A stretch of 64,000 nucleotides of DNA from Schmidtea polychroa (Eukaryota): assembly GCA_044892525.1 (NCBI GenBank), contig CM097885.1, positions 24,306,001 to 24,370,000 of the forward strand, read 5' to 3'. Shown here one piece after another: positions 12,583-64,000 of this stretch. Under the pieces are notes generated by a model that was not told where the DNA came from, did not search any database, and saw nothing but the letters and a program-made list of their open reading frames with translations. Each line of letters begins with the position of its first letter. The first letter of the stretch is position 1. The translations under genes and the position numbers were made by a program.

Positions 12583-14949
12583 TGACATTATATGGTATTG
12601 TGGACATTTTTGTCAAAATTATTTTTTAAATGTAAATAACGCCTGAATACAAACTTAAGTTTGAAAAATTTTTCAATGTAAATTCTTCTTTTTTTTAAAT
12701 TAATAATTTGCCGCCTAATTTATTTTATGGTGTCATACAGATTTCTAGGTATAAAAAAATGCACGTTTACCGTAATGTGGACAAAAATGTCTATTATGAA
12801 ATTCCTGTTCAAACATGATTTGTTTTTACCTGTTTACAACAAACATATGATTTTTGATTTGACATATGTTTGCAACAAACATATGTTATTTGTTCTAAAT
12901 TATTATTTTGTGGGTTTTTTGTGCATTTATTTGCTATTCGTCAAGTAACTTGTACTGACCTTTGCTACGTCTAATTAGAATTTGTTATTTACACATTGCA
13001 TTGATACGATTACGAAGTTTGAGTCTAATATATTATATTTCAACTTATTTTTCTTCAAAAAAAAATCAAAATTATGACACATCAAAATTTAACCGATGAA
13101 GAAATTCAAGATTTAGTTTTTAGTAATAGCGAAGCTGATCCATCTGATGATGACCATGTTTTTATTGATAGCGAGTATTCGAGTTCTGATCAGGAAAGTT
13201 TAGGCGATGTAGATTCAAATAGTTTTTTATCGAAAGATAAGACAGTATTGTGGCATCAAAAACCTGTTAGCACCAATTTGGGTCGCAATCGAGCAGAAAA
13301 TATATTGAATATGACTCCGGGAATTACTAGGTATGCAGCTAGCCGAATCACTGATATAAACAGTGCATTCATGATATTTTTTCCGAAAGCAATTAAAAAT
13401 ATGATTTTGAAAAACTCAAACAGTGAAGGAAACACCGTTTTTGGAGATAGTTGGAAGGATTTGGATGCAACTGAACTTTATTCCTATTTTGGATGATTGA
13501 TTTTAGCGGGTGTTTATAAGTCAAAAAATGAAGCAACTGAAAGCTTATGGCATTAAACTACGGGTATTACGTGCAACCATGCCATTGAAAAGATTTCAAA
13601 ATATTTCAAAAAATTCTTAGATTTGATAAAAAAAAACCCGGTCAGAAAGACGTATGAATGACAAATTTGCGCCAATCCGAGAATTGTGGGATGCATGGAG
13701 TGAAAGGTTACCCATGTTTTATAATCCATCAGAGAATGTGACAGTTGATGAACAACTACTTGGTTTTCGTGGTCGATGTCCTTTTCGTCAATATATGAAA
13801 AGTAAACCTGCGAAATATGGATTAAATTTTAGATTGCAGCTTGCAGCAAGTCTGACTACGCTTGGAAAACACAGCCATATTTAGGAAAACAACCGGATGC
13901 TGCTCCCGAAATAAATCAAGGTATGAGAATTGTACTAGATTTAGTGAGGGGTCTCAAAGGTCACAACATAACACTCGACAATTTTTTCACATCATATCAG
14001 CTTGGTCAAAAACTCCTGGAAAAATCTATAACAATGGTGGGTACACTAAGAAAAAATAAACCAACAATCCCACCAGAAATTTTGAATACAAGATCTTTGC
14101 CACAATATACATCAAAATTTGTTTTTACAAAAGATACAACACTAGTATCTTATGTACCTAAAAAATATCGATGCGTAGTGATGCAAAGTACTCTACATTT
14201 GTCTGATGAAATTATAACTAATGAACCTCAACGTAAACCTGAAATTATCAAATATTATAATGCCACAAAAGGCGGAGTGGATACTTTAGATAAAATGATA
14301 TCCTGTTATTCTACAAAAAGAAAATCTAGAAGATGGTCATTCGTTGTTTTTTGCAATATGTTAGATATATCTGGTTACAATGCTTTCGTACTTTACAAGG
14401 AAGTTGATTTATCTTGGAATTATAATAGTTTGAGTAAGAGACGTTTATTTTTGGAAAAATTAGGTGATAGTTTGATAAAACCTCAAATGCTAAGCCGACA
14501 ACATTTACCTAGAGGACTTGCTGCGAGAAATATTATTCAGGAAGCTCAAAGCAACCAAGATAATGCTGGCGGATTTTCGAAGCCTACAGCTTCGAAAAGA
14601 GGCATGTGTTCTACTTGTCCTATCAGAACGGGGAAAACCATAATAAAATGTAATAAATGTAAAAATTATGTATGCAAAAACCATGTAAAATATATTTGTC
14701 CTGCTTGTCATAATAATTGAAAAATTAAAGAAATTTATTATGTTAAGTTCATTTTATATTATTTTGGTTAAAACTTTGAATAGTTTTTCGAATTTTTATT
14801 TTTGTTTTATATATTTGAATGTAAATAAAAAACTAATGAACTTAAAAAAATTTTTGTTTTTGTTACATTTTGATACAAAAATATATGGTAGACATTTTTG
14901 TCCTTAACGCGGTTAGCGTTGGTAGAAATGAATACCATTTGAAGGTTAA
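12583..14949 (+). mobile_element. piggyBac DNA transposon with disrupted transposase (13074-14720)
   Basis: DDD motifs VDEQL, TLDNFF and GGVDTLD; FRQYMKSKPAKYG; C-terminal Cys-rich domain. Right end ...AAGG-TTAA at 14945-14949. Subterminal GACATTTTTGTC repeats at ~12600, 12780 (inverted) and 14890. Stops/frameshifts present; left terminus degenerate. Confidence 0.92.
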
Positions 14950-16273: not shown

Positions 16274-19200
16274 ATGAATGAAAGTAAATTTTTTAATTTT
16301 ATTTTCCATTAATCTATTTGATTTATAGAATTAAATTCGATTTTGTTATTTAATAAGTAAATATTTATAGTTTTTTATAATTGATTTTGATTTATAATTA
16401 TTTAGAATTGAGAAATCCGTTTTAAAAACACCCAGGTAACACTGTAATCTGAATATATGTTATAATTGATATTTTAAGTCTTAAGCGACGACGAAGTTTA
16501 AAATCTATCAAGTTTGCTAAATGTTGTCTAGGAGCAAATTTAAAACCTAAAACTCAATATATTGGAGATAGGTTAACAATATTCTATTATTTAATGCAAA
16601 TAATAATAATTTCCCCATTTAGAATAATGGCACACAGAGGCGTTATGAATTTTGAAAATATTGAAATTGGTTTATATAGAAATTCAATCGATACTAATTC
16701 AAATTATCAAGAACTATCTATTCCAAATTTAATTGAAAAAACAATGAGACCATCTCGGAAACGATTGTTAAAATTAAGTATTCACCATGAGTCACCTTCA
16801 TCAGATGAGAAGCTACAACAATTAATTTCCCAAAGCCAAACTATCAAACGGAAATTCAATCGACACATATCAATTGTAAGAATAAGTTTACTTTTTTAAA
16901 ACTTGTATTACGATTTTTTATTTTAATTTAAATTTTTTTGAATGTAATAATAATTGTTTTCATCAGCCCTCCCACACCATTTACCGATCTCACCACGGTT
17001 ATATAATGAATTACTATTTTTGATGATCAATTTGACTTTCTCAATACAAATTGACGCTAAACTCCACTTTCGCATCAAGAAATCTTTTTTTTCAAGTCTT
17101 TAAAGACATACCATCACGAATTCGAAATTTTGAGGGCATTTCATAATTAGTCAAGGATTATAATATGAAAATTGAGATAGAATGTTTCTAAAGAAAAACA
17201 AATTCTCCATGAAAAATACTGGAGTTATTCAATTAGCCAATAAAAAATTTGGAATTATTTGATTGGCCGGTAGGAAATTCCGGTATTTTAGGCAGGAAAT
17301 CAAAGCAATTTTTCACAAATACAGAAAACTTAATCAATTAAATATTGCTCAATTTTATTTATGGTGTTTTTTGTCAGTTTTCTAATAATATACTCCCAGG
17401 ATTTGGATCAGGAACCGGAGCTTAGGAATTAAACCCAATCTGGCTCCGGTTTCGATATTTTATATGTATTTTTTAACAAAAATATTTACTTCTAAAAGAC
17501 AAAATCAACTATACGGATATTTTATCAAATTAGCCAGTTTGAAACTATAGCAACAGTTACGATAACCCTTGGTGATGTTTTATTTTTTAACACCTTCAAA
17601 ATACTCACCAATGTCGGTATGAATTTAGAAAATGCCCATAACGTCATGGAATCGCATTTCAGGTATGTATTCACCGTGATAACTATCATTCTTCTCATTA
17701 CCGCGGTTTCGAAGTTGGAGCTGGAACCGAAACATCATGAATATAGACACTTTAACCTTCGTTTCACCAAGCTCATTGACCTCCCAGAATCGCTGGAGTT
17801 GATGTTCCAGCTCTTTCTAACTTGAAAACCTCGTATTGGAACTTCTAACTCTAACTATTTCCAATCCACCAATACAAGTCCATCCTTTGACCTGATCGTA
17901 TCAGTACATATGTTATGGATGGAAATTTTATTCCTTTTACATGATTCCATCCAATTTTGATCATTCTTTAGTTTATCTCTCTTAAACTATGAGCAACCTA
18001 TGCTACTCCCATTACATTTGATCTTTCACAAACACCCTAATCGACACTCCACAAGTTTAATATTCCTGACTACCACATTTTCAATAATAATCATTAAAAC
18101 TAACACGCTATTTTCAAATATATCAGAACATCATCTAAATATGCAGCAACACCGTTATACAAAATATAATCAAACAGTATGTGCATAAGTCTTTGGAAAG
18201 TTGCTGGAATTGTGGATAATCCAAATGGCATTTGATTGTAACAGAACTGTCCTTTCTTTATAGAAAACGCTTCATCCACATGTACCTGATAATATGCCTG
18301 CCCCAAGTCTAGGGACGAAAAAACTGAAGATCCAGACAGAGAATCGAATATTGTTTGGGGATCTGCCGTTGGAAAAGTGAATTTTTCAGTAACTTCATTA
18401 GCCTTCCTAAAATCTTGACACATCCTGATTGATCCGTCTTTCTTACCTACCACGACCGCAGGTGAGTTCCATGGGCTTTGACATTTCCCGATAATGCCCA
18501 TTTTCAATAATTTCATAATCATATCGTCCACTTTTAATTCCATCTTTATAGCCATGCGCCTAAGATTTTGAATAATGGGATTTCCAGACGTTTTCATAGT
18601 ATGATTAGTACAACCTATATCAAAATCTGATTCCATGAAGATCGTACTATACATGGTTACCAACTGCACCAGTTTGGGTCTGAATTTGGTCCAAAAACAT
18701 CCAGCGCTTTTTGACATCGTTCGGTATCACTGTAGCTAACACCAACCGTATCTGAATCAGGCATTATGCTCTTTTTCCATAATCCCCAGTGTTTCATGTA
18801 CTACCACCATGCATTTACATTTACAAACACGCCTTTACTTTTCAATAAAACAGGAATCGTTCTTAAACTATAGAAACTTGTTCCGATCTTCCACAGTATT
18901 TGCTCTAAATTCGTCAAAAGGACTTGTTTCCTAGTAACCCAGTCTAAAATGCAGGTAAACCTTCGCATATTTCACACAAAAATTAAAAGATGTTAACCAT
19001 GTTTCATATTCAAACAGTTTGTTTTATTTTTGGCTTAGTAACCTTCGCTTCACTCCAAAATGTTAACATAATGCACATTTAATTGGCATAAAATTTGCGT
19101 TTATAACCAGTGTTCTAGGAAATGAGTCTTTATTGTTTTTTTTATAAAGAAATAACAAAATGAATCTCCTAAATTTTTAAGCATCCTGAAAGAGTATTAG

Positions 19201-31096: not shown

Positions 31097-32941
31097 ATGA
31101 ATACTTCCAATAAAAAACGAATATCCGTGCGATTTGATGAAAATACTATTTCAAGGTGATTTAATTTAAAATATTTCTATTTAATTTTTTTTCAAATTCA
31201 GTCGCAGAGAGGAATCAAATAAAATACACAATGTGAAAACGAACAGGTAAGGATTTTTCATATTTTCATTATAATTATTTTTGTTTAGAAAATCTACTGA
31301 CATTTTGAGAAATCGCTTGAAAAGTGAATTTAAAAAAACTGTAAGAAATGCTAATAAAAATAATTACAAAGGCGACCGGTAAATTTTGTCTTTAAATTAT
31401 TAACTCTTACTTTTTAATAGGTTTTTTGCACATAGAGGTGCAATGAATTTTGACAAAGTTTACAATTCTCATATGTCTGATTTGGTATGTTTAGCTCACA
31501 CCGATGTAAATAGTTTAGATATAAGCGTGACAAAAAAACGTTCCAGAAAAATAAAATACAATTTAAATCAAAAGTCTCCCTCAAATCTTCAAAAGGTGGA
31601 TAATTTCATTAAAAGTGAAAATTCTAAATTTATGAAACTTAATAGAATTATTCCCACGGTAATATATATGATTTTTTATTTTCTAAAAATATCTTTCAAA
31701 GGTTCCAGAAAAAGTACTGGTGGTATTGAATGAGATTAGTGAAAATGAGGATAGTATATATGAGGATAGTGAAAACATAGTTGAACACATACAAACTTGT
31801 TGGCTTGAAAATGGTCTTTTAGCTATTGGACTTGATCATCGAGTATTTTTATGGAATGAGATATCGAATTGTTCCAGCAAAATACACCACTACACTAAAA
31901 GTTCTGGCAAACACATCTGTTCGTTAACTTGGGTTGGGTATGATGACACTAGAAATATCCCAAAGTTGGCAATAGGAAATAACGTTGGGGAATTGGAAAT
32001 AGTGGAAATAGATGAATTTTTTAAAGTTAGTGACACTTCAGTGGTATGTGAGAAAACTATCACACATAAAATCGTCATGAAAGACAATACTCTGATCTCG
32101 GCATTAGCATTTGCAAACAATATATTAACTATTGGATTGGAATCCGGCATTATCCAACATCATTCATTAGAATCGTTCTCCACTTCATTATCGAAAAACA
32201 AATATCATACAGAAGTCAGTGGAATATTACAAATTTTGATATTAATATTTGTAAAATAGGAAATTCATAAAATGGTCTGGTCGGTGGATAAAATCCATTT
32301 GGCAGTAATTTCGAAAGGTGGTATTTTAACCGTTTGGGATTCTAACTACCTCAATAAGAAACCGGTGATAAAATTGCACGATAAGAATGAAAGAATTAAT
32401 GATATTTCATGGAATCCCAAAAATTCGAAGCAATTAGTATATTGCAGTGGGAAAAACGATTGCCAACTGAAGATAATTGATGTAAAGTTAAAGCAATTTA
32501 TAAAATCAGTTAATACAGATCAAAGAGTAAATTTTATCAATTATAATATTGATTATAATTCAATATTATTTATTAATATAGTTGAGGTTTATATATTGGA
32601 GCAAGGTTGAGAATGAAATCATTTGCGTTGCCAAACCACAGATACCTAATCCTATCACAGATGAGTCTATTCATGAGGATTTGGATTATTCTAAAATTAT
32701 TCTTTTTAATCAGAAAACTCTTATGAAAATTTCAGAAATAAAATGTATGTCTAGATTTGAACATTTATATTGTGTTTTAAAAATATTTAATATAGGTAAC
32801 GAAAATCAGTACGGATTGACTAGCAATGGTAATGGAGATCAGGTTGTCACAGTTGGAAGACATGGTGAAATTAGAGTTTGGAAATTATTTCCTATCAAGA
32901 AATCACAACCAATGATGGATTTTTATTCGAATTTGAGATAA
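31097..32941 (+). CDS. CDC20: Divergent CDC20/Fizzy-family APC/C activator (WD40), paralog B, compact 8-exon gene
   Basis: GDR|FFAHRGAMNFD C-box variant split by an intron at the same site as in paralog A; PEKVLVVL; LLAIGLDHRVFLWN; WD40 repeats; VVTVGRHGEIRVWKLF; C-terminal ...FYSNLR*. Introns are ~40-55 nt. Confidence 0.82.
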
Positions 32942-34523
32942 TCTATAATATTTTTTCAATACATTCTATATTGCTTTTCTATTTATTTTAAATCCAATCG
33001 TTCTATCTAACCAATGAAATCATATCAATCCATTTCAAAATTTCTATTGGTAATTATAAACAGCCAATCAGAAAGAATTCTTAAATAACATCCAAGTCAT
33101 CATACCAAATTAAAAAATGATATTTTAATTTGATCAAATTGGCATCAATTTGGAGAACCAGTATTTTCGCGCGTCCAACTGTATGTGGCATTATCACGAT
33201 TAAGAAAATTAATCGTTACGATGAGCTCAATGCAAAAAATTAATTTTTCGCATTTTTTTGTGAGAATTCAACTTAAAATAAATGAAAAATGTAAGCCTTA
33301 AAAACAACTCTTTGCTATTTGTGATTATTTGTTATTGTTAAACAGTAATACACCTAATTCCGAAATTTAGTAACTTCTATAATCTAAAAAAAAATCTATA
33401 AATTTATAGTATAGGAACACACAAACTTACCTGTGTATAGAAATTATTGTTCCAAAATTTAATAACTTTATAGGATTTCTGAAGGTGAGAGAAAAATAAT
33501 TGAACACACCAACACAAAACACAATGAAAAATGCATGCAAATTTATTATAGCTTTTTTTGTTCCGAAATAAATAACGATTAACATATTGTTAACATATAA
33601 TTATTTTGAAATTATTAAAAAGTTTTGTAGGAAAATACTTTTAATTTAGAATCCGACAGCTCTAGCTTGAGCTTCAGAGAAAAAGAAGAAAATACATCTT
33701 AAAATTCAATTATAAAATAATTTAAAATATAAACTCTTTAGATTTACAGATATTTCTCAGGATACATTGCCTTTTCGCGAAGGTGGAAATGTAAGATTTA
33801 TTCATTAAATTACAAAACATTAAAAATTGCAGAAAGTAATTCACAATTCGTAAATTTAAATAAATTATTTCATTATAAAATTCAGCCTTTCCTTCTTTCC
33901 TAATTGTATTAAAAAATAAATGTCTTCGGTGATTAATTTACTTATAATCAAAAATATATCTAACTTACATTTTATTGAAATAATTCCAAATAAATTCAAA
34001 ATGTCAAAATTCCTAAAAAAACCTGAAATTTATTTAACAATATGTTATATTATAAATGCTGGTTAACAGTAATATTTAAGAACTTGAATAATAATCTCAT
34101 AATTATATAAAATCAAAATTCAAGTCTTAAAGTTACCTGAAATTAAAAAATTTAAAAAATCATTTTTAAAAAATTGAATAATTGAAATTGAGTAACTTTA
34201 TTTACACTCACCTCAACTTGTGTACACACCAACGTGAATTATAGACGTTACTAAATTTCGGAATTGGGTGTAGCAAAGAAGATTATTGATTGACCAGAGA
34301 CAATTCACACATTATGTTTGTGTTTCAAGAGTATCTTCATTAAATTTGCTTATTATTAGATAGAATCGAATTTTTAATAAATATTTCATATATATTAAAT
34401 TAAAGTATTTATTATTTTTCAACGGTTGCCTTTTAACAAACTGGTTTTTATTTTAAGATAAACAATATATATTTATGAAAACAGACAAACACGAATATAA
34501 TACACAATAAAATTAAAATTTAT

Positions 34524-37500: not shown

Positions 37501-40500
37501 TTTAGTTGAAAACCCATGTCCTAAACCAACCTCAATCAAACAAAGTCCTAGTATTATAAAATTATCACTTAATACAGATTTTACTTGTGTAAAAATAATA
37601 ATTTATGAATTTTTTTAAGTTATTAAAATATTATAAATTCAAATGAAAATATTACTTTTTTAATAATATCTATCGTTTCCTTTTCGTTGTTATATATTTG
37701 ATGCATTAACCGATTTCCAGGCCCAGAACTCAAATAGGCAGCCGTATTTTTCATTAGGATTCGTCCATTGTTTTTCTTTGAATTTCTTCGGCAAGCTTTC
37801 AAATAGCTTCTCACTTTGCTGCGATGCTTTGATTCTTCATACTCCGGAAATTGCCGGACAAGAATCGTATTAATTAAATTTAACAGTTCTTTTGGTTGGT
37901 GAGAAAATATAACATTTCTATCAAGTGCCTCATCAATGATTCTTCGAAGTAAAAGCTTGAAATAAAAAAAAACACTTAATAAAGGCTGTGATACAAATTT
38001 GTATATATATATATATATATATATATTGAATTTAGTGATATTGAAGGATATGGAGGATGTGAAATTACACTGATCATGGGACCTTACATAGGCCAGTAGT
38101 GGTAAAGCATAATTTCATAGCTGATTTCATTAATTTATTATAATTCTAATTGTCTTATTTTCAATAAAACCTTATTATAAATCAGTTTACCTTTAATAGA
38201 ATAAAAGTCTTTCCACTTTGATAAAAATACAGTAACTTAAATATTTGATATGTGAGTTTTTAACTATTAATATAATCTTTGGATATAATTGTCTTAATCA
38301 TAGGCGTAACTGGGTTTTCGACGCCCTTGGCTAATTTATCTTTGGCGCCCTTTCAATTATTAGAAAAAAATAATTTCTATAAAATAATAATTATAAAAAA
38401 CTTCCTGAATACTCTAACTTATCCATTTTTCTATAAAAAGGCATAATTGGGCTGTCTTTCATTTAATTTATTGTATTTACATTTTGAAGCATTCGGTCTC
38501 CTGAGGCCTTATATCCTTTCTATTATGATTTCAAAGTGATCTCATTCCTGTATTACATTTTTTTAAATTTTACATATTAAATTTTTACATATTTTATAAA
38601 CAAAAGGATAGATACTATTAATTGTTTATTGGAATAAAATGTGCCACACTTAAAAAATTATTGGTGTGAGGAAGGTGTTCAACGACAATATAATCTCGCT
38701 CCAGGAAAGACTGTTGAACATGCATTTTGGCTTGGTATTTTGAAGTTTGACATAATACTAATTGAACTTAGCGTTGGGTTCACTTCTTTCAGCTTGCCCA
38801 GTATTCTTTTATAACTTTCTTTGGATTTACCAAGAAGTAGGCATACTCGAGCGGTACAGCAGATTCATAAATCAGCGCGTGAATCGTAAAAACTCGCAAA
38901 CAAATAGTAGGCACAACTTTAAACATTCCATCTTTAAACCAGTACTTATGTTCTTGAAGAAGGTCAATATTCAATTTAGTCCCAAACATCAAAATCGCTG
39001 AGTACGAGATCGGTGACCGTAAGGATGGTGATTTAAGATAACGAATACATTTTTCTCAATCACTACCATAGTTTCCGCACTTTTCAGAATTGAGACGTTG
39101 TCTTGAAGGAGCTGTGAAGGAAGCCCATCAGACATTTTGTGATTACGCTTGCATGTATTCATGAGGTTGCTGTAGTAGGTTGAATTAATTTGTAAGTCAT
39201 TTTCAGTGAAATCCGTACATATTATGCCACTTTGATCCCAAAGATTTGTTGGAGTATTAATCAATAAAATCGATTAGTTTCTGACTGTTCGTCCCTTTTA
39301 TAAATCAAATAACTAAGACTCAAATCCAAAATATTTATTGATTATCAATTTAATTTAGAACTCACCAGTAATTTCAACTTCTCTTTCAGTAATTTATTCT
39401 GATTTAGCGTTATTGGAGACAGCACAATGGGTAGTCACCTTGTCTGGAACGTTAAACTGATTTAGAATTATAACAAAAAGTTTGTTTCTTTCATTTACTT
39501 CTACTTGATTAATTATTAGACTTGATTAAATAATTCCCTTAGTTCTTTTTATTCGACCGAATGACAATGTGCTTTTCAATCACTCTCTTTTTATACCCTA
39601 TCTTTGAAAACAATTTAATTATTGTTCATCCAGTATTCCTGAAATTCTGTCTAATTGCCTCCATAACAAGCAAATTGTTCAAAATATAAATATAAGCATT
39701 ACATAATAGTTTTCTTAAAAAAATATTTATTTGAAATTGTAATGTACATTTAATACATCGATGTAATGTACATCGAATAATGTATTTAATGAAAAAGGCT
39801 TAAATTATTACGTTATTGTTTTAAATAATAAATGTTGCTATCAAGGAATAATCACTTTATACTAAATGAAATATTAACACAATTAAATGCAAAGATGATA
39901 CTAATAGAGGATAAAACCTATATAGAGAAGACTTTTGGTTATCCTGACTTTATACAAATAGGATAAAATTAATATTTTGTTTTTTTTTACAATTTCAAAT
40001 AAATATTTTTTTAAGAAAACTATTGTAATACATAATATGTATTTATTAATATATTTATAGTTAATTTAAATTTTATATTAAATTTATAATATCATATATT
40101 AAATCTGCGTTTTTCAATCTTTACTTTCACTGTACCACCAGGTAAAATAAATTGAATGTTCGTGTAAAGCCGCAAAGCTAAACAAAAATTAACAGGCTAG
40201 CAATAAGTTTCATTGCAATTTCAGAAGGAGAGGATAAAAAATATTCGAAATATTGTAAAAGTTTTAAATTTTAAGATTTTCAATTTATAAATAAATCGAC
40301 ACCTGGCGTACCACCGGTTGAAAATTGCTGCATTAATTAGTCTTTTTATGATTGTTATATGTTGGCATCGGTCAGAATATGAAAACACATTATTTAATTC
40401 TCCAAGTTTTAGTTTGCAGTTTCCTTTAATCAAAGGCGTCTTTAGAAATTTGTCGCCCCTGTGCTATAAACTATAATGCGCCCCTAAAAAAACAATTTTT

Positions 40501-49800: not shown

Positions 49801-52500
49801 TATGATATAAGGTAACATTGGGCCAGTGGAGCATATGATATAAGGTAACTTTGGGCCTGTGGAGCATATGATATAAGGTAACATTGGGCCAGTGGAGCAT
49901 ATGATATAAGGTAACATTGGGCTAGTGGAGCATATGATATAAGATAACATTGGGGTAGTGGAGCATATGATATAAGGTAACATTGGACAAGTAGCGTGCA
50001 CGAAATCGGGAATTTTTCTCAATCAGATTATCAGAGACTAAATACCTGTCATAAAACCTTATTAATTTTCCAATGGCAAATGCAAAAATAGGCCTCTGAG
50101 AGCAGGCGTAGCAGGTATGCAATGCGACAAAATATGCTCATTAGAACCGGTTAGGTTTGAATAATTATATGTAAAAGTCAATTTTGCAAGGCCATATTGG
50201 TAAATGAAAAGGTCGGACAGAATATACTTGCTGTCCCGTAACCAGGTCGCCCTATTCCCACCAAATAAAACAATATGAATCATTCTAAGTCAGAGTTGCT
50301 AATAGAATATATGAAATCACATTGTATTATCCGCATGAAATGTATATATGGGAATATACATAAACCACATGGGAAAATCAATAAATATTTCCAATCAGCA
50401 TTAATTCCATGGATATGAAATTTATTTACTGCAATATAATATAAAAAGTCACCGTTATCATTGGTGGTGCTAGGAGTGGCTTGCATCGTGTCTCCGGATG
50501 ATGAGAATATTGAATTGATCAATCCGCCAATGAATGTGCGGACCGGATCGCCTTCCCTGGCATCGGTCACATTAGTGGTCGTGTTAGCAGTTGTAGATGG
50601 TGCCGTGGTGGTGGTAGTCACCACTGGTGACTCAGTGGGGCGCGGGCGACTCCTAGAGCTATCTCTAAACTATATCAATCGATAATTAAATGAATCCATT
50701 ATCAATTGTCTCACCCGAATGCCACCAAATGTCGATATAACCGCTCCAGTCCTGAGATTCGAAGGATTCTGGAAATGTCTCGATTGGCACCTGACATATG
50801 GATCGACATTCTCAATCAATGGCGATCCATTTCTGATAGTCGTGCGAGGATTTGCGCCATTGATCCGTGCCGCCCCACTCGATTGGCCAGGCATAGAGTT
50901 AGTTGCGGTTGAATGGACAAATGAGTCATGCAATGTTGACCGAAACAGATTCTCCATGGTAGCCTGTCCAGGGAATTGTGGCGGTACCGCTTGACGACGA
51001 ATTCGAGCAGTTCCGGCCGGTGTTTCGGTGGTCGGGGTTGGCTGACTCGGCACGGTGCTCGTGGTGACTGGGTCTGAAGCCGGTTGGGATGCACGCCTAC
51101 AACAGAATCAATAATATGTAACATGCCAGCAAGGTTACCCACTCAGTAGTTCTCGTTGCAAACACATGCGTCTGACCACTCGTAACTGGCATCTGAATAG
51201 TCGAATCGACATCCAATCTCACTTGAAACAATTGGGCTGGCATTTCCGAGAAAACGTACAGATATCGACTGCGATCATTACTGTCAAGATTTGTGTCAGA
51301 TGTATTATTAGCGGTTGAAGCATTGCCCTCGGTCGATCCTTCTGATTGAGGTAACCCGCTTTCGCCGAATGCTCCAGTTAATGGAGTGATGTTTTCATCG
51401 ATTGAGGTGCTTGTAGCAGCTTCATTTGTTGGTGTGGCGGTCTCGTTGGCATTTCTATGAACTGGCATTACTCTCGTGTTTGCATTGTATTGGAATTCCA
51501 CCAAATAATCACTCATTATGTGCAACATGTGAGAGAAAAGATGTATATATCGACTAGCTGAATCATGCATCCGTTGCATTTCCCGATCATAATTTGCTAT
51601 ACTGTCCGGCAGATTTTGTCGTCGCAATACATTTTCCCATAATTCCAATTGCGGTTCTGCATCTCGCCACATATCTCGGACGCTATGTACCATGTCGGCT
51701 AAATTATGGATTGGCAAAGGCTGAGCCGACACTTCAGTTATTCTTTCTTCATTTACCCCTAAATCATATGCATTTGCTTGATATAGTCTCTCCCGATCTG
51801 GGCGAGGCGCCGGTAAACTTGGATCTCTAAGATTATCAAGCAATTCTCTGGCTTGTGACATTAGTCTGTGGATATAATTCTGACGCAATCTTGCAAGACT
51901 TAATCTATTAGAACTTGGCATATTTACAGTAATATCTACTCTATTGCCTTCATTATTAACAGAAACCCTGATAAATAACTTAATAATAATAAAAAAATAC
52001 AATCAACAGTTACCCCATAGGATTACTTAATTCGGCAATGTTACCAAAAACATCACTCAGAATATTTCTAATTTGGTCTCGATTAATATCAGAATTTTCT
52101 TCTCTTTCAGTAGTAGTTGTATCTGGAGCTGGTCTATTTTGATTTGGCGGAGGTCTTGTTACCAAATGCATCACATTTCCAGCGACATCTATTTCAATCA
52201 AAAAGTGACATTTAAATCAAAATTTACTATATGAGGACAAAAGGTTATCGTCTTGCAACACGCGACCCTGGAACAACAATCTCTGTCTCTCAACAGCAAT
52301 ATCCTGTAGGTATTTTTAATTAAAATAAAAATTTCTTAAAAACTACCATTTTATGATGAATAATGGCTTTAAATTGCAGAACATTAATCTAAAAATATAT
52401 TACTTAGATAGTACTTTAAACTAATTTTTACATTATCTGGAACAGAAAAATCATGATTCCTTCCATCCAGAGTCTTCACTATCACATTTATCGTACTCAT
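46866..52500 (-). CDS. BAG6: BAG6/Scythe (large proline-rich protein BAT3) homolog, multi-exon
   Basis: N-terminal UBL domain (MSTINVIVKTLDGRNHDFSV..., IAVERQRLLFQGRVLQDD..., MHLVTRPPP); HLFSHMLHIMSD; DPYVRCQSRHF; C-terminal VLPPDWIDIVSRD...PYSDAYVSGMPPKRRK and DRFASVEQNF. Confidence 0.92.
49751..49988. repeat. 33-bp minisatellite (~7 copies) in a BAG6 intron
   Basis: Unit AACATTGGGCCAGTGGAGCATATGATATAAGGT. Confidence 0.95.
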
Positions 52501-55650: not shown

Positions 55651-56143
55651 AGGTAAAATGCATGCTTACCGGTAACCCACTATCAGTCTTAATTTGTTAT
55701 ATTATTTATTATTCTTTTATTTTTGAGTTGGTAGATTTTCAAATGCGTTATTTTCTATTAACTATTTTGGTGATTGCAACTTCTTGTGTTTATCAATTTT
55801 ATTTTACGAGTTTTATATATTCTCAATTTGTTGTGTACTTTACATTGTATTATTTGATGTATAATTCAACTTGATGCGGTTTTCATGCTATGTGTTTTTG
55901 ACTCATTAAAACAAGCTCTCAATTTTTGATTCTAAACAAACATTATCATCGATGGTAAATATGACCCCAGTGTTGTTCAGAAAGCGAAATATTAAACGTG
56001 TTTCAACAACATCAATCTTATTCAACAATATCATCTATCTCCTTAGGTTTCATTATTGTAATTTAAATAATGTATGATAAGCAAGAAGTGAAAGGTTACT
56101 GCTGAGGGTTGCATAGGAATTTACGGTTTTGGTTATGGTCCGA

Positions 56144-56747
56144 AGTAGTATATAGTGAGGACTCCAGGACACTTTCAAGGTCATCCCAATGTCCAGATCA
56201 AATATAGGTAAATAGAATCATTTTTATTTATTTTTTTTTAAAATTTATTTTATTACTTCTATTTAATTTTTTTTTAATTTATTAATTAATTATTTTATTA
56301 TGTTTTTTGTTTTAATTAATTACTTTAGTTAATTTTCAATTTATTACATTTAATTAATTAATTATTTATTAATATTTTATTTTAATTACTTACGTTATTT
56401 AATTAATTTTTTTTTAATTTAATTTTTTTTTATCTATTATTATTATTATTTTTTTTTATTGTTATTATTTTACATTTACATTTAATATATTCTAAGAAGA
56501 GTGTAAATTGTAACAATAATATTTCAATTTGAATAAAATTTTAATTAGTAATAATCATAAAATAAAGCTGTGTTAATTTAAAATAAAATGGGCATTAATT
56601 TTTCAAAACAAAGCAAAGTTTTTCATGATAAATAATAATTCTTACTTAAAACTAATTATCTAAATTAATTGGACAAATGAATTATTAAATGATAAAACAT
56701 ATTTTAATTAACGAAGTCAAATAATTCACAATATATATTTTATTATT
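56144..56747 (+). repeat. Left terminal inverted repeat
   Basis: Reverse complement of 62522-63125 with only scattered mismatches. Confidence 0.95.
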
Positions 56748-56804
56748 AAACCTTTGCATAGATCTCTTCAAGACCTTTCGAATGATGTGAATAAAATATA
56801 ATAA

Positions 56805-56976
56805 AATTTTAAAATACCGCAACGTAATATAAATTTTGAAATACCGCAACGTAATATAAAATTTAAAATACCGCAACGTAATATATTTAAAAAAATTTAA
56901 AAAAAATTAAAAAAAAACCCTCCCCTCCCCCGGGGGTATGACGTCATATGTCTTTGTGACGTCATCGATGACGTCA
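56805..56976. promoter_or_regulatory. Subterminal motif cluster: 3x AAATACCGCAACGTAATATA and 3x CRE palindrome TGACGTCA
   Basis: TGACGTCA at 56939, 56957 and 56969. ACCGCAACGTAAT repeats at ~56815, 56843 and 56870, with a variant at ~58336. Confidence 0.6.
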
Positions 56977-57089
56977 TATGTCTTTGTTCCCGGCTCCACA
57001 CATTACCCTACTCTACTGTTTTTTCTCTCTCTTTTTCACCCATTTGTTTCTTTTCTCTTTGTCCGATTGGGATTTAAGTGTAACCATGT

Positions 57090-58110
57090 ATAGGCAGAAT
57101 TTAATTCTCTACAAAATGGCTCAATTACAATTTTAGTTTGTCACTTTGTGTGTAATACACACATGTTTTTACGATAAATTTGTATTTTTCGCGCGGTTAA
57201 CGTAATTTTCTCGGATTTTTATTCATATATTATATAGGCAAAATTTAATTTTCTATAAAATAGCTTGATTAAAAATTATGTCTCGTATGTTGTGTGTAAT
57301 ACACACATGTTTTGACGATACATTTGTATTTTTCTTACAGTTAACGTAATTTTCTTAAGATTTTATTCATATAATATATAGATAAAATTTAATTTTCTAT
57401 AAAATAGATTGATTAGAAATTATGTATCTTGTTTTGTGAGTAATACACACATGTTTTTACGATAAATTTGTATTTACTATACGTTAACGTAATTTCCTTG
57501 GATATTTATTCATTTATTATAGAGATAAAATTTAATTTTCTATAAAATGGATTGATCTAGAGTTTAAAATGTTGTATTATTTTATTACTTTGTTGCAATA
57601 TTTTTATAATCTTATAACAATTTGCTTAAATATTTTACACCTGTTGAAATATTTCCGAAATATGTTATTACTTTGTTGTAATTTACTGAAAGACTTCACA
57701 ATTTATTACAATATTCTTTTTAATTTGTTGTCCGTCTTCGAAATAATATATTGATTTGTCTCAATTAACATCATTATTTTATTACTTTGTTGCAATATTT
57801 TCTAATTTTGTTACAATTTGCTTAAATATTTTACAACTGTTGAAAATTTATCTGAAAAACGTTATTACTGTGTTGCAATTTGATGAAAAATGATATTACT
57901 TTGTGGATTCATCACATATTTTTATAATCTTGTTACAATTTGTTTAAATATTTTATAACTTTGTTGGGATTTGATAAAATCATTTATTAATTTTTATCAT
58001 TTGCTTAAATATTTTACATCAGTTGAAATATTTCCGAAATGTCATTACTTGGTTGTAATATATATTTTTTCATAATGTTACAATTTGATTAAATATTTCA
58101 GAAAAAATAA

Positions 58111-58180
<70 letters not shown>
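57090..58180. repeat. Internal tandem repeats of the element (~145-bp x3, degenerate longer units, (AAT)n)
   Basis: GTAATACACACATGTTTT at ~57152, 57296 and 57440; CAATTTGCTTAAATATTTTACA recurring across 57615-58100; AAT microsatellite at ~58106-58180. Confidence 0.88.
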
Positions 58181-58181
<1 letters not shown>

Positions 58182-58352
58182 GAAATTATGAATATGTTGA
58201 AAACTATGAAAATGTTAAAAATAATCATGAAATTGAGGCAAAAATTATAAAAATGTTCCTGAAATTATTATGAAAATGTTAAATAAATAAACTTTAGCGT
58301 CAAAATGTGTTTTAAAATATATTGAAGTTTTAAAATACTGCAACGTAATGCA

Positions 58353-58490
58353 TTTATTTTTCCTACCCCTTCCTTGATTTTGATTGGTCAGAATATATTT
58401 ATTTTTCCTACCCCTTCCTTGATTTTGATTGGTCAGAATTTAATCATGTGTAATATATAAGCAGTAACTTTTCAAATGTTTGTCATTTAA
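58353..58490 (+). promoter_or_regulatory. Pol II promoter of polB: tandem CCAAT-box units, TATA box, Inr-like TCATT
   Basis: Duplicated ~45-bp unit CCTACCCCTTCCTTGATTTTGATTGGTCAGAAT; TATATAA at ~58454; TCATTT ~28 nt downstream. Confidence 0.65.
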
Positions 58491-58511
58491 ACTTTTAATT
58501 TAACTTATATA

Positions 58512-61500
58512 AGTGAATAATATTTTTATTCTCTATCTAATATTAATGATTATTTTCTTTTAGTGAACGGATGCAGTTTATATAAATTTTGTATTGCCGA
58601 AAGTCATGAAGATGTGGAGAATTGTAAATCAGTTACATCATCATATTTCAAGATAAATGACTCTACCTTATCGGGTTACATATGTCCGGAATGTCTCATT
58701 ATATCACCAGGTAGGTGGTTAATGTTTGTACGACAACACGGACACCATCTTAGAAGATTCGAAGAAACGAAGAGCAGGATGATCACTAAAAGTAATACTC
58801 TTTCTACTATTAACAATTATTAATTTTTTATAGTACAATCGAAAATGAATACATCATACGATCCTAAGCCGATTAAAGAATATATTACAAGTTATGTTAT
58901 TTAAGTTGTTTAATATTAATTATAAATATAGTTAGACAAAACTCTGGCACCACAAAACGAAAGTCAATATTTTACGGAAATGGAGACTCTAACATACAAT
59001 TGTGTCCACGTCGGGAGTCTGACTTAAATGGTTCTCGTGTTGAATTGACAAGCGATGTATCTGCAATTAATTCTCCTGACATTTTTGTTCCAGATTGTCT
59101 CATCAAAGAAATAGAAGATCATATTCAACGAATGGGGACAGTAAAAATCCAATTTGGACTTTGTGCAGAGTTTATCAAAGAGGATGGTGAAATTAAAAAA
59201 TGGTGTTTGTCAAATAAAGCAATTACAATGTCATCTTCATTTATTAATGATGGAATTGAAAAATTAAAAGAAAAGTTGGAGAAATACACTCAACAAAGTA
59301 GTGGGTAGAGAATTCATAAAATATTAGAAGTTACTATGATTTTAACTAAATTATCAGACATAATACATGTATCTGGTAAGATTATTTACATTATTATATA
59401 TATAAATCAAGATATTTATTTAGGTTCAAGTTACATTAAAACGCCAAATTACCTGAAAAACTGTCTGGCTTTAGTTAATGTACACAACAATGATCAATTC
59501 TGCTTTTTATATGGCATACTGGCTGTATTACATTATGATGACATAAAACACCACAGAGAAAGAGTAATGAAATATAATTTAAGTGGTAATATATATATAT
59601 TTATATTTATATATTTATATTTATACATATATTATTTTATTTAGAGTTAAAATGGAAATCAGATTGGTTTCCAATGAAGTTGGTTAACATTTGCCAATTT
59701 GAAGCAATGAATCCTAATCTAGCGATCAATGTTCTCAAATATAATAAGGATCCAATTAAACAGAATAGTGAAAATATTTTCAAGAATCCGTTCGTTGACT
59801 TGGCATATAGAAGTACTTCGACGGGATCTCAGATATATCTCCTATTGATTGAAGAAGGTAATATTTCTTTTAATCATTAAAAATATTAACTAAATTTTAG
59901 AATTAAATTATCATTATTTGGCTGTAACCAATCTCGATCGACTGCTCAATTACAGAGATAGAGTAGAAGGAGTCAGAATCCAATCACATTGGTGTCATAC
60001 GTGTCTTCACGGGTTTCGAAAACGTCCTGCTTTTGAAAGACATATAGGTCTTTGTAGGAAGAATGTGGAGCGGACGACTCTATACTCAATGCCAGAGAAT
60101 AAATATATCGAATTTAAAGACTGGAGTAAAACTATAAAACAGCAGTTTGTTGTGTACGCGGACTTTGAATCAATATTACCTCTAGACGACAAACACTTCC
60201 AAAAACATGAACCGATTGCATCTGAATTTGTGCTTCTTCATCAAGGTCATCCGATTCGAAATGAAACATTTGTTGGGAAAAATTGTATCATTCAGTTTAT
60301 ACACGCATTGGATGATATAGCTAAAGACATAGTTTATCCGTGGTATAAAATTAATGGATCGAATGAAATGATGGAACTCACTTGGGAACAGCAGGAAGAA
60401 TTTACGAACCAAACTCATTGCTACCTTTGTAAAAAGATTATCAATATACCTGTTCGGGATCATGATCATTTTACCGGTCAATATCTCGGAGCAGCATGTC
60501 AAGATTGTAATTTGGCTAGAAGAATTAATCCGTCTTTACCTGTTGTATTTCACAATCTTCGTGGATATGACATTCATCATATATTAAAATATGCAATTGG
60601 AAAATTCCCAGATTGGAATTTAAATGTTATTCCACAATCAACAGAAAAGTTTCTCACACTTACAGCAACATCGAAAGGCAGAAGAATTAGATTCATTGAT
60701 TCTTTACAATTTTTAAATAGCAGCTTGGCAAATTTATCAAAAAATTTACCATGTCTTCCACTGACCTCAGATGTTTTCGAATCACAGATGATGACTTGTA
60801 AAACCATTTTTCCTTATGATATGGCTACATCAATGGATGTTTTACAGTCAATAACAGAATTACCTGCAATTTGGGAGGGAGTTAGTCAAGAAGATTATAT
60901 ACATGCAAATCGAATCTGGCAACAATACAACTGTGAGACATTGCTAGATTACATGCTAATATATCTCAAGTTGGATGTTTTTCTGTTGGCCGATGTTTTT
61001 GAAGCCTTCAGAGAAAAAACATTTGACGAAGATGGACTTGAGGCTCTATCGTTTGTTTCCATACCCGGATTAAGTTGGGCATCAGCTATTAAACAGTTAC
61101 CTGAACCGATAGAACTTATTCAAGATCCAGAGCTTTACCGTTTATTTGAAGCTGGTATTCGTGGTGGAATGACATTTATCAACAAACATCATGTTGAAGC
61201 TGATGTATCAACACAAATGTCATACCTAGATGTTAATAATTTATATGGATGGGCTCTGTCGCAAAAACTTCCTGTTGGTGAATTTAGATGGATAAATGAT
61301 CAGACTGAAATGAATGGTATTATTAAAAGATGTGCAAATGGGGATGAGTTTGATGGAGATCGTGGATATGTTTTGGAGGTTGATATCGTCATTCCTGATA
61401 GTATACAGGATAAACTAGATAATTTACCTATAGCTCCTGAGCTTTGTTATCCGCCTGGAAGTAAAGTTGAAAAGCTGTTGTTAACTCATGAGCCTAAGAA

Positions 61501-62505
61501 AAACTATGTAGTTAATGGTAGAGTTTTGACAGAGTGGTTGAGTTACGGCGCAAAAGTCACAAAAGTTAATCGTGCTGTAGAATTCAAGCAAGTGGCTATT
61601 TTCAAAAGATATATTGATTACAATACCAAAATGAGAGCAGCTAGTACGGATTCGTTTCAGCGAGATTATTATAAGTTAAAGAACAACAGTTTATACGGTA
61701 AAACTGTGGAAAACTTGAAGAAACGTATAAATTTGAGATTATGCAACAAAAGCAAAAGATTGATAACTTATTGTAGTCATCCTATGTTTCGTCGTAGCAT
61801 CAAGATTGCGGATGATCTCATTGCTGTTATACTCAATAAATAAATTGTGTGTTTAGATAGACCAATGTATATTGGACAAACCGTACTTGATTTATCCAAA
61901 CTTCGCATGTACCAATTTCAATATAAAGAGCTACAGAGTTATAGAGAAGAATTCATTGTCAAATTAATATCGTAGCCGGTGACACAGATTCCTTCTTTTT
62001 AGAGTGTAAAAATGTAGATTTACGCTTACAACTATATCCAAAAATGATTGAAGATGGGCTCCTAGATACTTCAAATTATCCAGTGACCGATCCGTTGTTC
62101 TCTGATAAAATTTGTTCTGTAATCGGGAAAGTTAAGGATGAGAATAAAGGAAATCAATATAAAGAATGGGTGTTTCTTCGACCCAAGTGCTACTCACTCC
62201 AAGGCGATAAAAACACTCTAAAAGCCAAAGGAATAAGACTAACAAACTCTAATCTTACACATGAAGCCTATAAAAAAGTGTATACTGATGGTGGAACAGT
62301 GAGCATCCCACAAAAAAGAATAGGAAGTGTCAATCATCAGTTGTATACTTTCATGACAGAAAGACGAGCTCTCCAATGTTTGGACGATAAAAGGTATTGG
62401 TACAATTGTAATGAAAGCTATGCCTACGGTCACTATAAGATTCGTCAAATGCATATTGCAACTGCTATGTCTAGAAATGAATGCAAATCGAAACAAGCAC
62501 TTTAA
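58512..62505 (+). pseudogene. polB: Protein-primed family B DNA polymerase (Polinton/adintovirus type), 6 introns, ~1236 aa when repaired
   Basis: ExoI VVYADFES, ExoII FHNLRGYD, ExoIII YLKLDV; Pol A YLDVNNLYG, Pol B KLKNNSLYGKT, Pol C AGDTDS; LRPKCYS, KAKGI, LDDKR. EndoVII-like insert CYLC..RDHDHFTGQYLGAACQDCN. Lesions: TAG at 59306-59308 (SSG[W]), TAA at 61841-61843 and a 1-nt frameshift near 61953. Confidence 0.93.
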
Positions 62506-62521
62506 CAATTAAATTTATGTG

Positions 62522-63125
62522 AATAATAAAATATATATTGTGAATTATTTGACTTCGTTAATTAAAATATGTTTTATCATTTAATAATTCATTTGTCCAA
62601 TTAATTTAGATAATTAGTTTTAAGTAAGAATTATTATTTATCATGAAAAACTTTGCTTTGTTTTGAAAAATTAATGCCCATTTTATTTTAAATTAACACA
62701 GCTTTATTTTATGATTATTACTAATTAAAATTTTATTCAAATTGAAATATTATTGTTACAATTTACACTCTTGTTAGAATATATTAAATGTAAATGTAAA
62801 ATAATAACAATAAAAATAAATAATAATAATAGTAGATAAAAAAAATTAAATTAAAAAAAAATTAATTAAATAACGTAAGTAATTAAAATAAAATATTAAT
62901 AAATAATTAATTAATTAAATGTAATAAATTGAAAATTAACTAAAGTAATTAATTAAAACAAAAAACATAATAAAATAATTAATTAATAAATTAAAAAAAA
63001 AATTAAATAGAAGTAATAAAATAAATTTAAAAAAAAAATAAATAAAAATGATTCTATTGACCTATATTTGATCTGGACATTGGGATGACCTTGAAAGTGT
63101 CCTGGAGTCCTCACTATATACTACT
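62522..63125 (-). repeat. Right terminal inverted repeat
   Basis: Begins 17 nt after the polB stop and ends in CTACT, followed by the TSD GTCCGA. Confidence 0.95.
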
Positions 63126-63577
63126 GTCCGATTGTCGTATTTATGATCGCTGGTAGGTATGATGATCTGGAAGTGAATGAAATATGCTTAATAGAAGGTT
63201 CTAGTTTATTCACTGGAAATTTAATTCCATGGGCCGGTAATACATATTACCGGTAATTTTCAGGGTCCTATGTTGTTGATTTTAATATCCCTGTTGTGCG
63301 TGATGAACTACATGGCCTAATTATATACGGATTAAGCCTCATCTGTCTTAAGTCTGTTTATCATACCTCTGACTCCCTGACTCAGTACCAGGCTGTCGAA
63401 GATTAAGATTTGATCAAACGATTTAATACAAACTCTTACATTGTAATTTATATTACTGTTAATTATATTACAAGGGCAAAAAGAAAAAGGCGACAATCAA
63501 AAGGATGAAATTCAAAAGTACGTATTAGTAAAACAAACAATAAAAGAGCGAATATAATTAATATTATAATTAATATT

Positions 63578-64000
63578 AGTAGTAGGATGTGTCACCTCCA
63601 GGACACTATAAAATAAGTTGTATAAAACAAGTTAAGTAGTATAAAATAAGTATAAATTAAGTTAAAATTTAAGTAGGTCAAGTTAAAATTAAGTAGATCA
63701 AGTTAAAATTATGTAGGTCACGATTATATAGTTTAAAAATATGTAGGTCAAGTTAAAATTAAGTAGATCACGACTATATAATTTAAAATATGTAGGTCAA
63801 GTTAAAAGTAAGTAGATCACGACTATATAGTTTTTAAAATATATATAGGTCAAGTTACTTTAAACATGTGTCACCTCCAGGACACACACATATATATATA
63901 TATATATAAGTAGGTCAAGTTAAAATTAAGTAGATCAAATTAAAATTATGTAGGTCACGACTATATAGGTATTAAAATATTTAGGTCAAGTTACTTTAAA
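63578..64000 (+). mobile_element. Left terminus of a second, related Polinton-type element (runs off the window)
   Basis: AGTAGTA followed by CTCCAGGACACT at offset +18, the same spacing as at 56144. Then ~19-20-bp tandem repeats (AAGTAGGTCAAGTTAAAATT) and a second TGTGTCACCTCCAGGACAC at ~63867. Confidence 0.65.

Follow-up and report, generated by a model that had tools for sequence, protein, structure and literature searches.

Six predicted phase-1 introns and a likely split start codon in the protein-primed polymerase gene of a polymerase-only Polinton derivative

The window analysed here (the whole stretch of 64,000 nucleotides of Schmidtea polychroa DNA) contains a virus-type polB gene that is broken up by six short AT-rich intervals, and this locus raises the questions of whether these intervals are spliceosomal introns, whether the first of them makes the start codon, and how they came into such a gene. 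Our answer, which we hold to be probable as a whole, is that the locus is the protein-primed polymerase gene of a polymerase-only Polinton derivative, with six likely gained phase-1 introns that would be removed by the spliceosome, the first splice likely creating the start codon.

The polB gene and its intervals

The gene and its putative promoter are laid out as follows (window coordinates).

58382..58432, + strand: short duplication holding two reverse CCAAT-like words (GATTGG, at 58382 and at 58427), putative function
58446..58455, + strand: rival start, consisting of ATG, T and a GTAATA donor-like word that overlaps the TATA-like box
58454..58488, + strand: TATA-like box (58454-58461) and initiator-like TCATTT (58483-58488), 31 nt apart
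58485..58512, + strand: predicted exon 1 (leader; its last A opens the start codon), ending in ATATAA in 33 of 33 copies
58513..58563, + strand: intron 1, phase 1, inside the predicted ATG, 51 nt here and 47, 50 or 51 nt in copies
58564..58791, + strand: exon 2, N-terminal Cys/His (zinc-finger-like) region, aligning with residue 1 onward of P0004, P0005 and P0011
58792..58833, + strand: intron 2, phase 1, 42 nt (42-47 in copies), with an in-frame stop if retained
58834..58890, + strand: exon 3, poorly conserved linker
58891..58931, + strand: intron 3, phase 1, 41 nt, weak GTTATG donor, invariant in 33 of 33 copies; retention gives a frameshift
58932..59375, + strand: exon 4, end of the linker and a predicted whole terminal-protein (LF/PAD-fold) domain with an invariant Ser
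59376..59423, + strand: intron 4, phase 1, 48 nt (45-104 in copies), at the modelled terminal-protein/vOTU boundary
59424..59585, + strand: exon 5, start of the vOTU protease with an invariant Cys
59586..59644, + strand: intron 5, phase 1, 59 nt here (39-103 in copies)
59645..59857, + strand: exon 6, vOTU body
59858..59900, + strand: intron 6, phase 1, 43 nt (copies have 42 or 43), immediately ahead of the HY motif and the strand with the catalytic His
59901..62505, + strand: coding part of exon 7, with the vOTU end, an endonuclease-VII-like insert, exonuclease and polymerase
62525..62530, + strand: AATAAA polyadenylation-like signal

The six GT-AG introns proposed in the initial annotation agree with the sequence at each coordinate. 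In the window copy they are 41-59 nt long, 83-95% AT and all in phase 1, and the five internal exons (228, 57, 444, 162 and 213 nt) are all multiples of 3, which would happen by chance in 1 of 243 cases. When the introns are removed one reading frame is formed, as had been claimed, with the named N-terminal motifs found in one register by exon-by-exon translation. The likeness in size to host introns holds as well, since a host CDC20-like gene (31156-32795) has seven candidate introns of 42-55 nt in the same style; their candidate phases of 2, 2, 2, 0, 0, 0 and 1 serve as a control for the all-phase-1 layout of polB. The polymerase part matches PF03175 (E 1.2e-32) in Pfam, and a match to PF02945 lies below the cut-off. 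The window copy itself is broken by two stops, a TAG at 59306-59308 (exon 4) and a TAA at 61841-61843, and by a change of frame near 61945-61966, so that its last exon is closed; the 2.6-kb exonuclease/polymerase exon of the initial annotation is open over about 870 codons in many sister copies but not here. Read-through of intron 4 stays in frame in the window copy. Elsewhere in the window, Pfam matches point to host genes at 31100-33000 (CDC20-like), 37623-38114 (NOL4-like) and 51097-52002 (BAG6-like), those to CDC20 and BAG6 being below the cut-off, and to pieces of a piggyBac-type transposase (13833-14720) and a reverse transcriptase (18100-18726).

Sister copies were collected from the same genome (781 Mb, AT-rich, four large contigs) by a DNA search, in which the best 40 of 1271 candidates were scored (nearly all full-length, 96-100%), and by a protein search, in which the best 132 of 12030 candidates were scored. 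Extraction of 58400-59945 gave 41 copies, 33 of them distinct, which are top matches, mutually related and not independent. The donor GT is present in all 33 at each of the six introns, and the acceptor AG in all 33 at five introns and in 31 at intron 5. Five of the six introns differ in length, often by non-multiples of 3, and exon lengths are kept in 30-33 of the 33 copies; exons 2-6 are open in 22. Shared variable exon sites fall 12, 11 and 32 times on codon positions 1, 2 and 3 (p 1.4e-4), and this third-position excess indicates that selection acted on the spliced frame. In every copy the frame is lost if intron 1, 2, 3 or 6 is retained, and only in that plain sense does the claim stand that expression is gated by host splicing; read-through is open for intron 4 in 24 copies and for intron 5 in 11. 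Contrary to expectation, introns 2 and 3 are no more diverse than the exons (substitution diversity of 0.007 and 0.000, against 0.009-0.057 in exons). As in U2-type introns, the GT-AG ends are conserved, the length is free and the frame is restored on removal. The sister copies thus bear out the introns, which are present across the 33 distinct copies with splice sites kept, lengths drifting and exon lengths fixed, and it is well supported by the sequence comparison that the intervals are spliceosomal introns needed for the full protein.

The spliced RNA is a prediction. Four read runs, taken from 13 of which none is on record as RNA, were guessed to be RNA, may be DNA and come without a host-gene control; they gave no spliced joint, and splicing is neither shown nor excluded by them. 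Contigs from these possibly-DNA runs cross intron 1 (X1) and introns 2-3 (X2, X4) and enter intron 6 (X2) unspliced, and the X1 contig, from a run of uncertain kind, also includes DNA upstream of the predicted promoter. A weak search for the spliced product, as a near-identical protein of more than 217 aa including exon 4, found none among 142 candidates; the sole 97% match among representative proteins covers 515 aa of exon 7 and comes from a 1.9-kb contig. It might be thought that only some of the intervals are spliced, introns 4 and 5 having started as in-frame AT-rich inserts and being often retained, or that a mostly unspliced fold-back RNA feeds silencing. The open read-through of introns 4 and 5 would fit partial splicing, as would the unspliced contigs if the four runs were RNA; the palindromic copies described below would yield double-stranded RNA, and Polintons are under piRNA control in a planarian according to the available part of PMC8532177. 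However, intron 5 varies from 39 to 103 nt regardless of frame, nine copies shift the frame within intron 4, and the third-position bias places the spliced frame under selection, while rare splicing would be compatible with the gene model. We regard incomplete splicing of this kind as very unlikely and keep all six intervals as predicted introns.

For the protein fold, the natural frame of a sister copy reading through introns 4 and 5 was modelled with a 60-row alignment (mean pLDDT 82), and the model confidence drops across the retained intron peptides. For exon 4 the matches are Y-family LF/PAD domains (best Z 7.6, rmsd 2.9, 99 aligned) and for exons 5-6 they are OTU domains of viral and cellular origin (Z 4.7, rmsd 4.2, 96 aligned), both at middling Z, and nothing reached E 0.001 in Foldseek. 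The Ser and the Cys are invariant in the 60 rows, and the His motif lies in exon 7. A terminal protein of LF/PAD fold and a vOTU are the folds predicted for Polinton pPolB in the available text of 10.1101/2024.03.18.585575. Judging from the model, exon 4 would hold the whole terminal-protein domain, with intron 4 on the border of terminal protein and vOTU. Since exon 4 would be a whole domain and the internal exons can be skipped in frame, we propose that three products are possible from one promoter, namely the polyprotein, a polymerase without terminal protein (exon 4 skipped) and a free terminal-protein precursor (intron 6 retained), an adenovirus-like division made by splicing; with one intron in the ATG and another five within the first 1.4 kb, the family may moreover be taken for a host gene and escape silencing, which would explain its spread as a polymerase-only palindrome. 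That the all-phase-1 layout is used in this way is a doubtful idea.

The start codon

Exon 1 ends in A at 58512 and exon 2 begins with TG, exactly as in the initial annotation, and this A|TG is found in all 33 copies, exon 2 starting with TGAA. The stretch 58453-58512 is identical in 32 of the 33, and transcription is predicted to start near 58485. In 3 of 16 homologs (P0004, P0005 and P0011) residue 1 aligns at 58563, and their M-x2-C start matches M-N-G-C; taken together, the N-termini of homologs are compatible with either start model (three with M-x2-C, two with M-x3-C). The split ATG is likely the better of the two models, and it fits the TATA/initiator pair, but the claim that the ATG exists only through splicing was too strong, since an unsplit ATG at 58446 is still a live rival. 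In that case the introns would be real, transcription would start further upstream, and ATG-T up to 58449 would be joined over a 114-nt intron to the same acceptor, giving M-L-N-G-C. This ATG has A at -3 and leads the sole ATG-led phase-1 donor within 400 nt; its GTAATA is the donor word of introns 2, 5 and 6, the M-x3-C start of two homologs would suit it, in family B (see below) a plausible leader with ATG precedes a GTAATA donor, and in adenoviruses the ATG leader is 9 bp long according to the accessible part of PMC5744146. On the other hand, it lies upstream of the TATA/initiator pair and its donor overlaps the TATA-like box, and the length of 58440-58512 is constant in 33 of 33 copies whereas that of 58513-58563 varies; at 114 nt the intron would be twice as long as the other five. 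Moreover, an ATG at 58476 with a four-codon frame would fall inside the intron or leader of the rival, and the three homologs starting with M-x2-C are in register with A|TG. We consider the unsplit ATG unlikely and retain the split one as the likely start.

The ATG and four-codon frame at 58476-58490 lie just upstream of the initiator-like word, in the register of the main frame, and are unchanged in all 33 copies. Trans-splicing with a leader ending in AUG is found in flatworms; a trans-spliced leader of this kind was rejected here, as it would be out of frame at the phase-1 acceptors. In five other Polinton families of this genome, B, C, D, E and F (L043, L047, L050, L060, L088-L089), a phase-1 AG followed by GT or GC stands upstream of the first Met. 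This acceptor-like AG is seven codons before a conserved Cys and before the first zinc finger, and three codons from the position used by the polB-only family. Like the adenoviruses, these families seem to have a spliced leader, and the pattern is that expected if splicing completes the first Cys codon. An ATG-led leader is plausible in family B, and no convincing ATG-led donor was seen for the leader exons of families C, D and F.

The element that carries the gene

The gene lies in an element (56144-63125) with the following further parts.

56138..56143, no strand: left target-site duplication GTCCGA, the same 6-mer as right of the element
56144..56747, + strand: left terminal inverted repeat, starting AGTAGT, 605 bp, 98.8% to 62522-63125 and all that is left of the mirror arm here
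56748..56988, no strand: palindrome centre with short tandem repeats and three TGACGTCA words, fixed family-wide
62522..63125, + strand: right terminal inverted repeat, ending ACTACT
63126..63131, no strand: right target-site duplication GTCCGA

The window copy has lost its left gene, where sister elements have a full 6-kb arm, and in many of the 40 scored places the centre segment abuts an inverted copy of 56989 onward. Most sister elements are palindromes of 11.9-14.6 kb. Among the 132 protein-search matches listed there are 42 divergent pairs, with about 0.9 pairs expected, and neither convergent nor tandem ones; the DNA-search matches (best 40 of 1271) include one of each. Within five elements the arms are 99.7-100% alike, against 93.6-98.4% between elements. 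Target duplications of 6 bp are present in 6 of the 6 family elements examined with both ends, and sister ends read AGTAGT or AGTAGC. The marks of a Polinton/Maverick are therefore found, namely (AGT)2 ends in terminal inverted repeats, a 6-bp target duplication, terminal protein with vOTU, and PF03175. No integrase was found in the window element, in the palindromes examined or upstream of 20 unpaired copies (0 of 20), no ATPase or capsid gene in the elements examined or upstream of the same 20 (0 of 20), and no long frame besides polB in the elements examined, which accordingly do not carry the integrase, packaging ATPase, capsid and protease of an autonomous Polinton. Families B, C, E and F carry ATPase, integrase and capsid genes, and some F-type elements are without polymerase. 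We conclude that the family is a young, high-copy, polymerase-only Polinton derivative, mostly with two mirror-image gene copies, and that its integrase is, from these gene contents, probably borrowed from other Polintons. Family B also occurs as polymerase-only palindromes of 11.5 and 15.4 kb with arms 99.8% alike (L042-L045), so this form arose more than once.

Long mirror arms and the need of a helper for insertion are typical of non-autonomous foldback or copy-back derivatives that stem from DNA transposons or linear DNA viruses. The present family shares the mirror arms and, as proposed here, the helper dependence, but both of its arms retain a polymerase gene under selection, and the centre is the same throughout the family. 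Long reads are known to produce fold-back artefacts, and it could be supposed that the palindromes are assembly fold-backs, or that the intervals are inserts from decay in an ancestor that was already dead and was multiplied passively by the enzymes of other Polintons; the copy in the window is indeed dead, and full-length families could supply all enzymes. Six inserts that are all GT-AG and phase 1, exons open in 22 of 33 copies and a last exon of 870 codons open in many speak against passive decay, and the duplications in 6 of 6 elements, unique flanks, an asymmetric conserved centre and small arm differences against assembly fold-back. Both suppositions are largely refuted and can be considered extremely unlikely, and we keep the reading of real palindromes with a selected gene.

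Several neighbouring or related elements were also observed. A second Polinton left end (AGTAGT..., like the end of the family) lies 450 bp past the element (window 63578-64000, L021-L022) and is followed within 13 kb by ATPase, integrase and capsid genes, with no polymerase within 20 kb. Two 15-kb Polintons with terminal repeats (L093-L095 and L099-L101) have ATPase, integrase, capsids and protease and lack the polymerase, in place of which they share a 4.6-kb repeat-rich segment (93% alike); these would complement the polymerase-only family. In L082-L086, a large palindrome of family F genes has fragments of the polB-only family nested convergently inside.

Origin of the introns and related systems

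A search gave 3510 long homologs, the best of which are single frames with 51-61% identity. Against P0001-P0012, there is no length difference at junction 4 in 12 of 12 and at junction 6 in 11 of 12, and at junction 5 the difference is zero in 4 and two residues in 8; in addition, the alignment score is higher with intron 4 removed than kept in all 12. The linker around junctions 2 and 3 cannot be aligned, and the homologs therefore give no test of introns 2 and 3. P0003 is one open frame on its own DNA (locus L041). In a FastTree tree (36 rows, exon-7 part, rooted on P0095) the family is placed with P0001/P0003 (0.97) in a clade that is otherwise intronless (0.99), away from families B, C and F of the same genome. 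As the intronless homologs are colinear at junctions 4-6 and the family is nested among them, gain of the six introns on the family's own branch is most likely and the simplest reading of the sequences. An intronless member of the family was not found in its own genome among the best 150 of 10286 candidates obtained with a homolog-fragment query, in which the contiguous matches, of five loci types, belonged to other families (54-56% identity) and family matches kept the intron stops. The long nuclear adaptation proposed in the initial annotation is undated, the introns being restricted to the branch of the family and the copies young.

If the inserts were read through, the splice signals would force a stop at 6 of 6 introns in phase 0, at 5 of 6 in phase 2 and at 0 of 6 in phase 1. 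The restriction to phase 1 would be explained by this, because only there do GTAA/GTGA donors and TAG acceptors give no stop in an insert of 3n length. We assume that the introns began as AT-rich insertions in loops and domain borders and were spliced later, and that phase-1 inserts alone could be tolerated while splicing was weak, introns 4 and 5 still often being open to read-through. An origin from introners was rejected: intron pairs are at shuffle level in 14 of 15 comparisons (one with p about 0.013), junction repeats are not clear, and the six introns are unlike each other, which argues against it. Spliceosomal introns within Polinton-like elements are known from dinoflagellate Maverick-Polinton-like proviruses, where they are introner-derived according to the available part of PMC11957031; unlike those, the six introns here are dissimilar, are present throughout the family and have been kept along with the reading frame.

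In its AGT-type ends, the inverted repeats at its termini and the target duplication of 6 bp the element resembles animal Polintons/Mavericks (eupolintoviruses, adintoviruses; available text of PMC8097293), and in the order of terminal protein, vOTU, exonuclease and palm domains it resembles Polinton pPolB (10.1101/2024.03.18.585575, as far as accessible), with 54-56% identity to polymerases of full-length Polinton families of the same genome. It differs from Polintons in the six pPolB introns, in having no integrase, ATPase, capsid or protease gene, and in an inverted repeat that in most cases spans the entire 6-kb arm with the gene in it. According to the accessible portion of PMC8097293, the genes of intact vertebrate Mavericks showed no introns, and the polB-only family departs from the intronless core genes described there. 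The adenovirus E2B genes pol and pTP also take their ATG from a tiny 9-bp leader by splicing (PMC5744146, in part) and have homologous terminal-protein and vOTU-like domains, whereas their ATG is unsplit, each gene has one coding intron and pTP is separate; here the ATG appears to be split, there are five more introns and the terminal protein is fused. The available portions of 10.1101/2023.08.22.554363, PMC8502044, PMC6431247 and 10.64898/2025.12.11.693146 contain nothing on pPolB introns, and our literature search, subscription papers, Repbase and supplements aside, found no description of a multi-intron Polinton pPolB or of a polB-only palindrome.

Combining these observations, we assume that host RNA polymerase II would start near 58485 and that the host spliceosome would remove the six introns, the first splice making the ATG and the whole giving a protein of zinc finger, terminal protein, vOTU, exonuclease and polymerase. 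This pPolB protein would copy excised elements from their AGT ends and so keep the arms alike, and the integrase of full-length Polinton families would insert the copies. For protein-primed copying of this kind, which would even out the arms, a panhandle model was reportedly put forward by Kapitonov and Jurka in 2006.

New here are the read-through logic that admits phase 1 only and an exon 4 that, by the model, corresponds to the whole terminal-protein domain. Because core genes of Polintons have been described and searched for as intronless, spliced families have likely been scored as fossils or missed. Human HUSH silencing is one from which introns give protection (available part of PMC8770142), and intron protection in this animal would be an analogy to it. 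The polymerase-only palindrome with matched arms informs directly on Polinton replication. The family, with six gains in 1.4 kb of one gene, may offer an unusually clean system for studying the origin of introns by the phase-1 read-through route and the protection of mobile DNA by introns: close intronless relatives show the condition before the gains, selection has left its traces in hundreds of copies, and sister families with less splicing, present in the same genome, can serve as controls.
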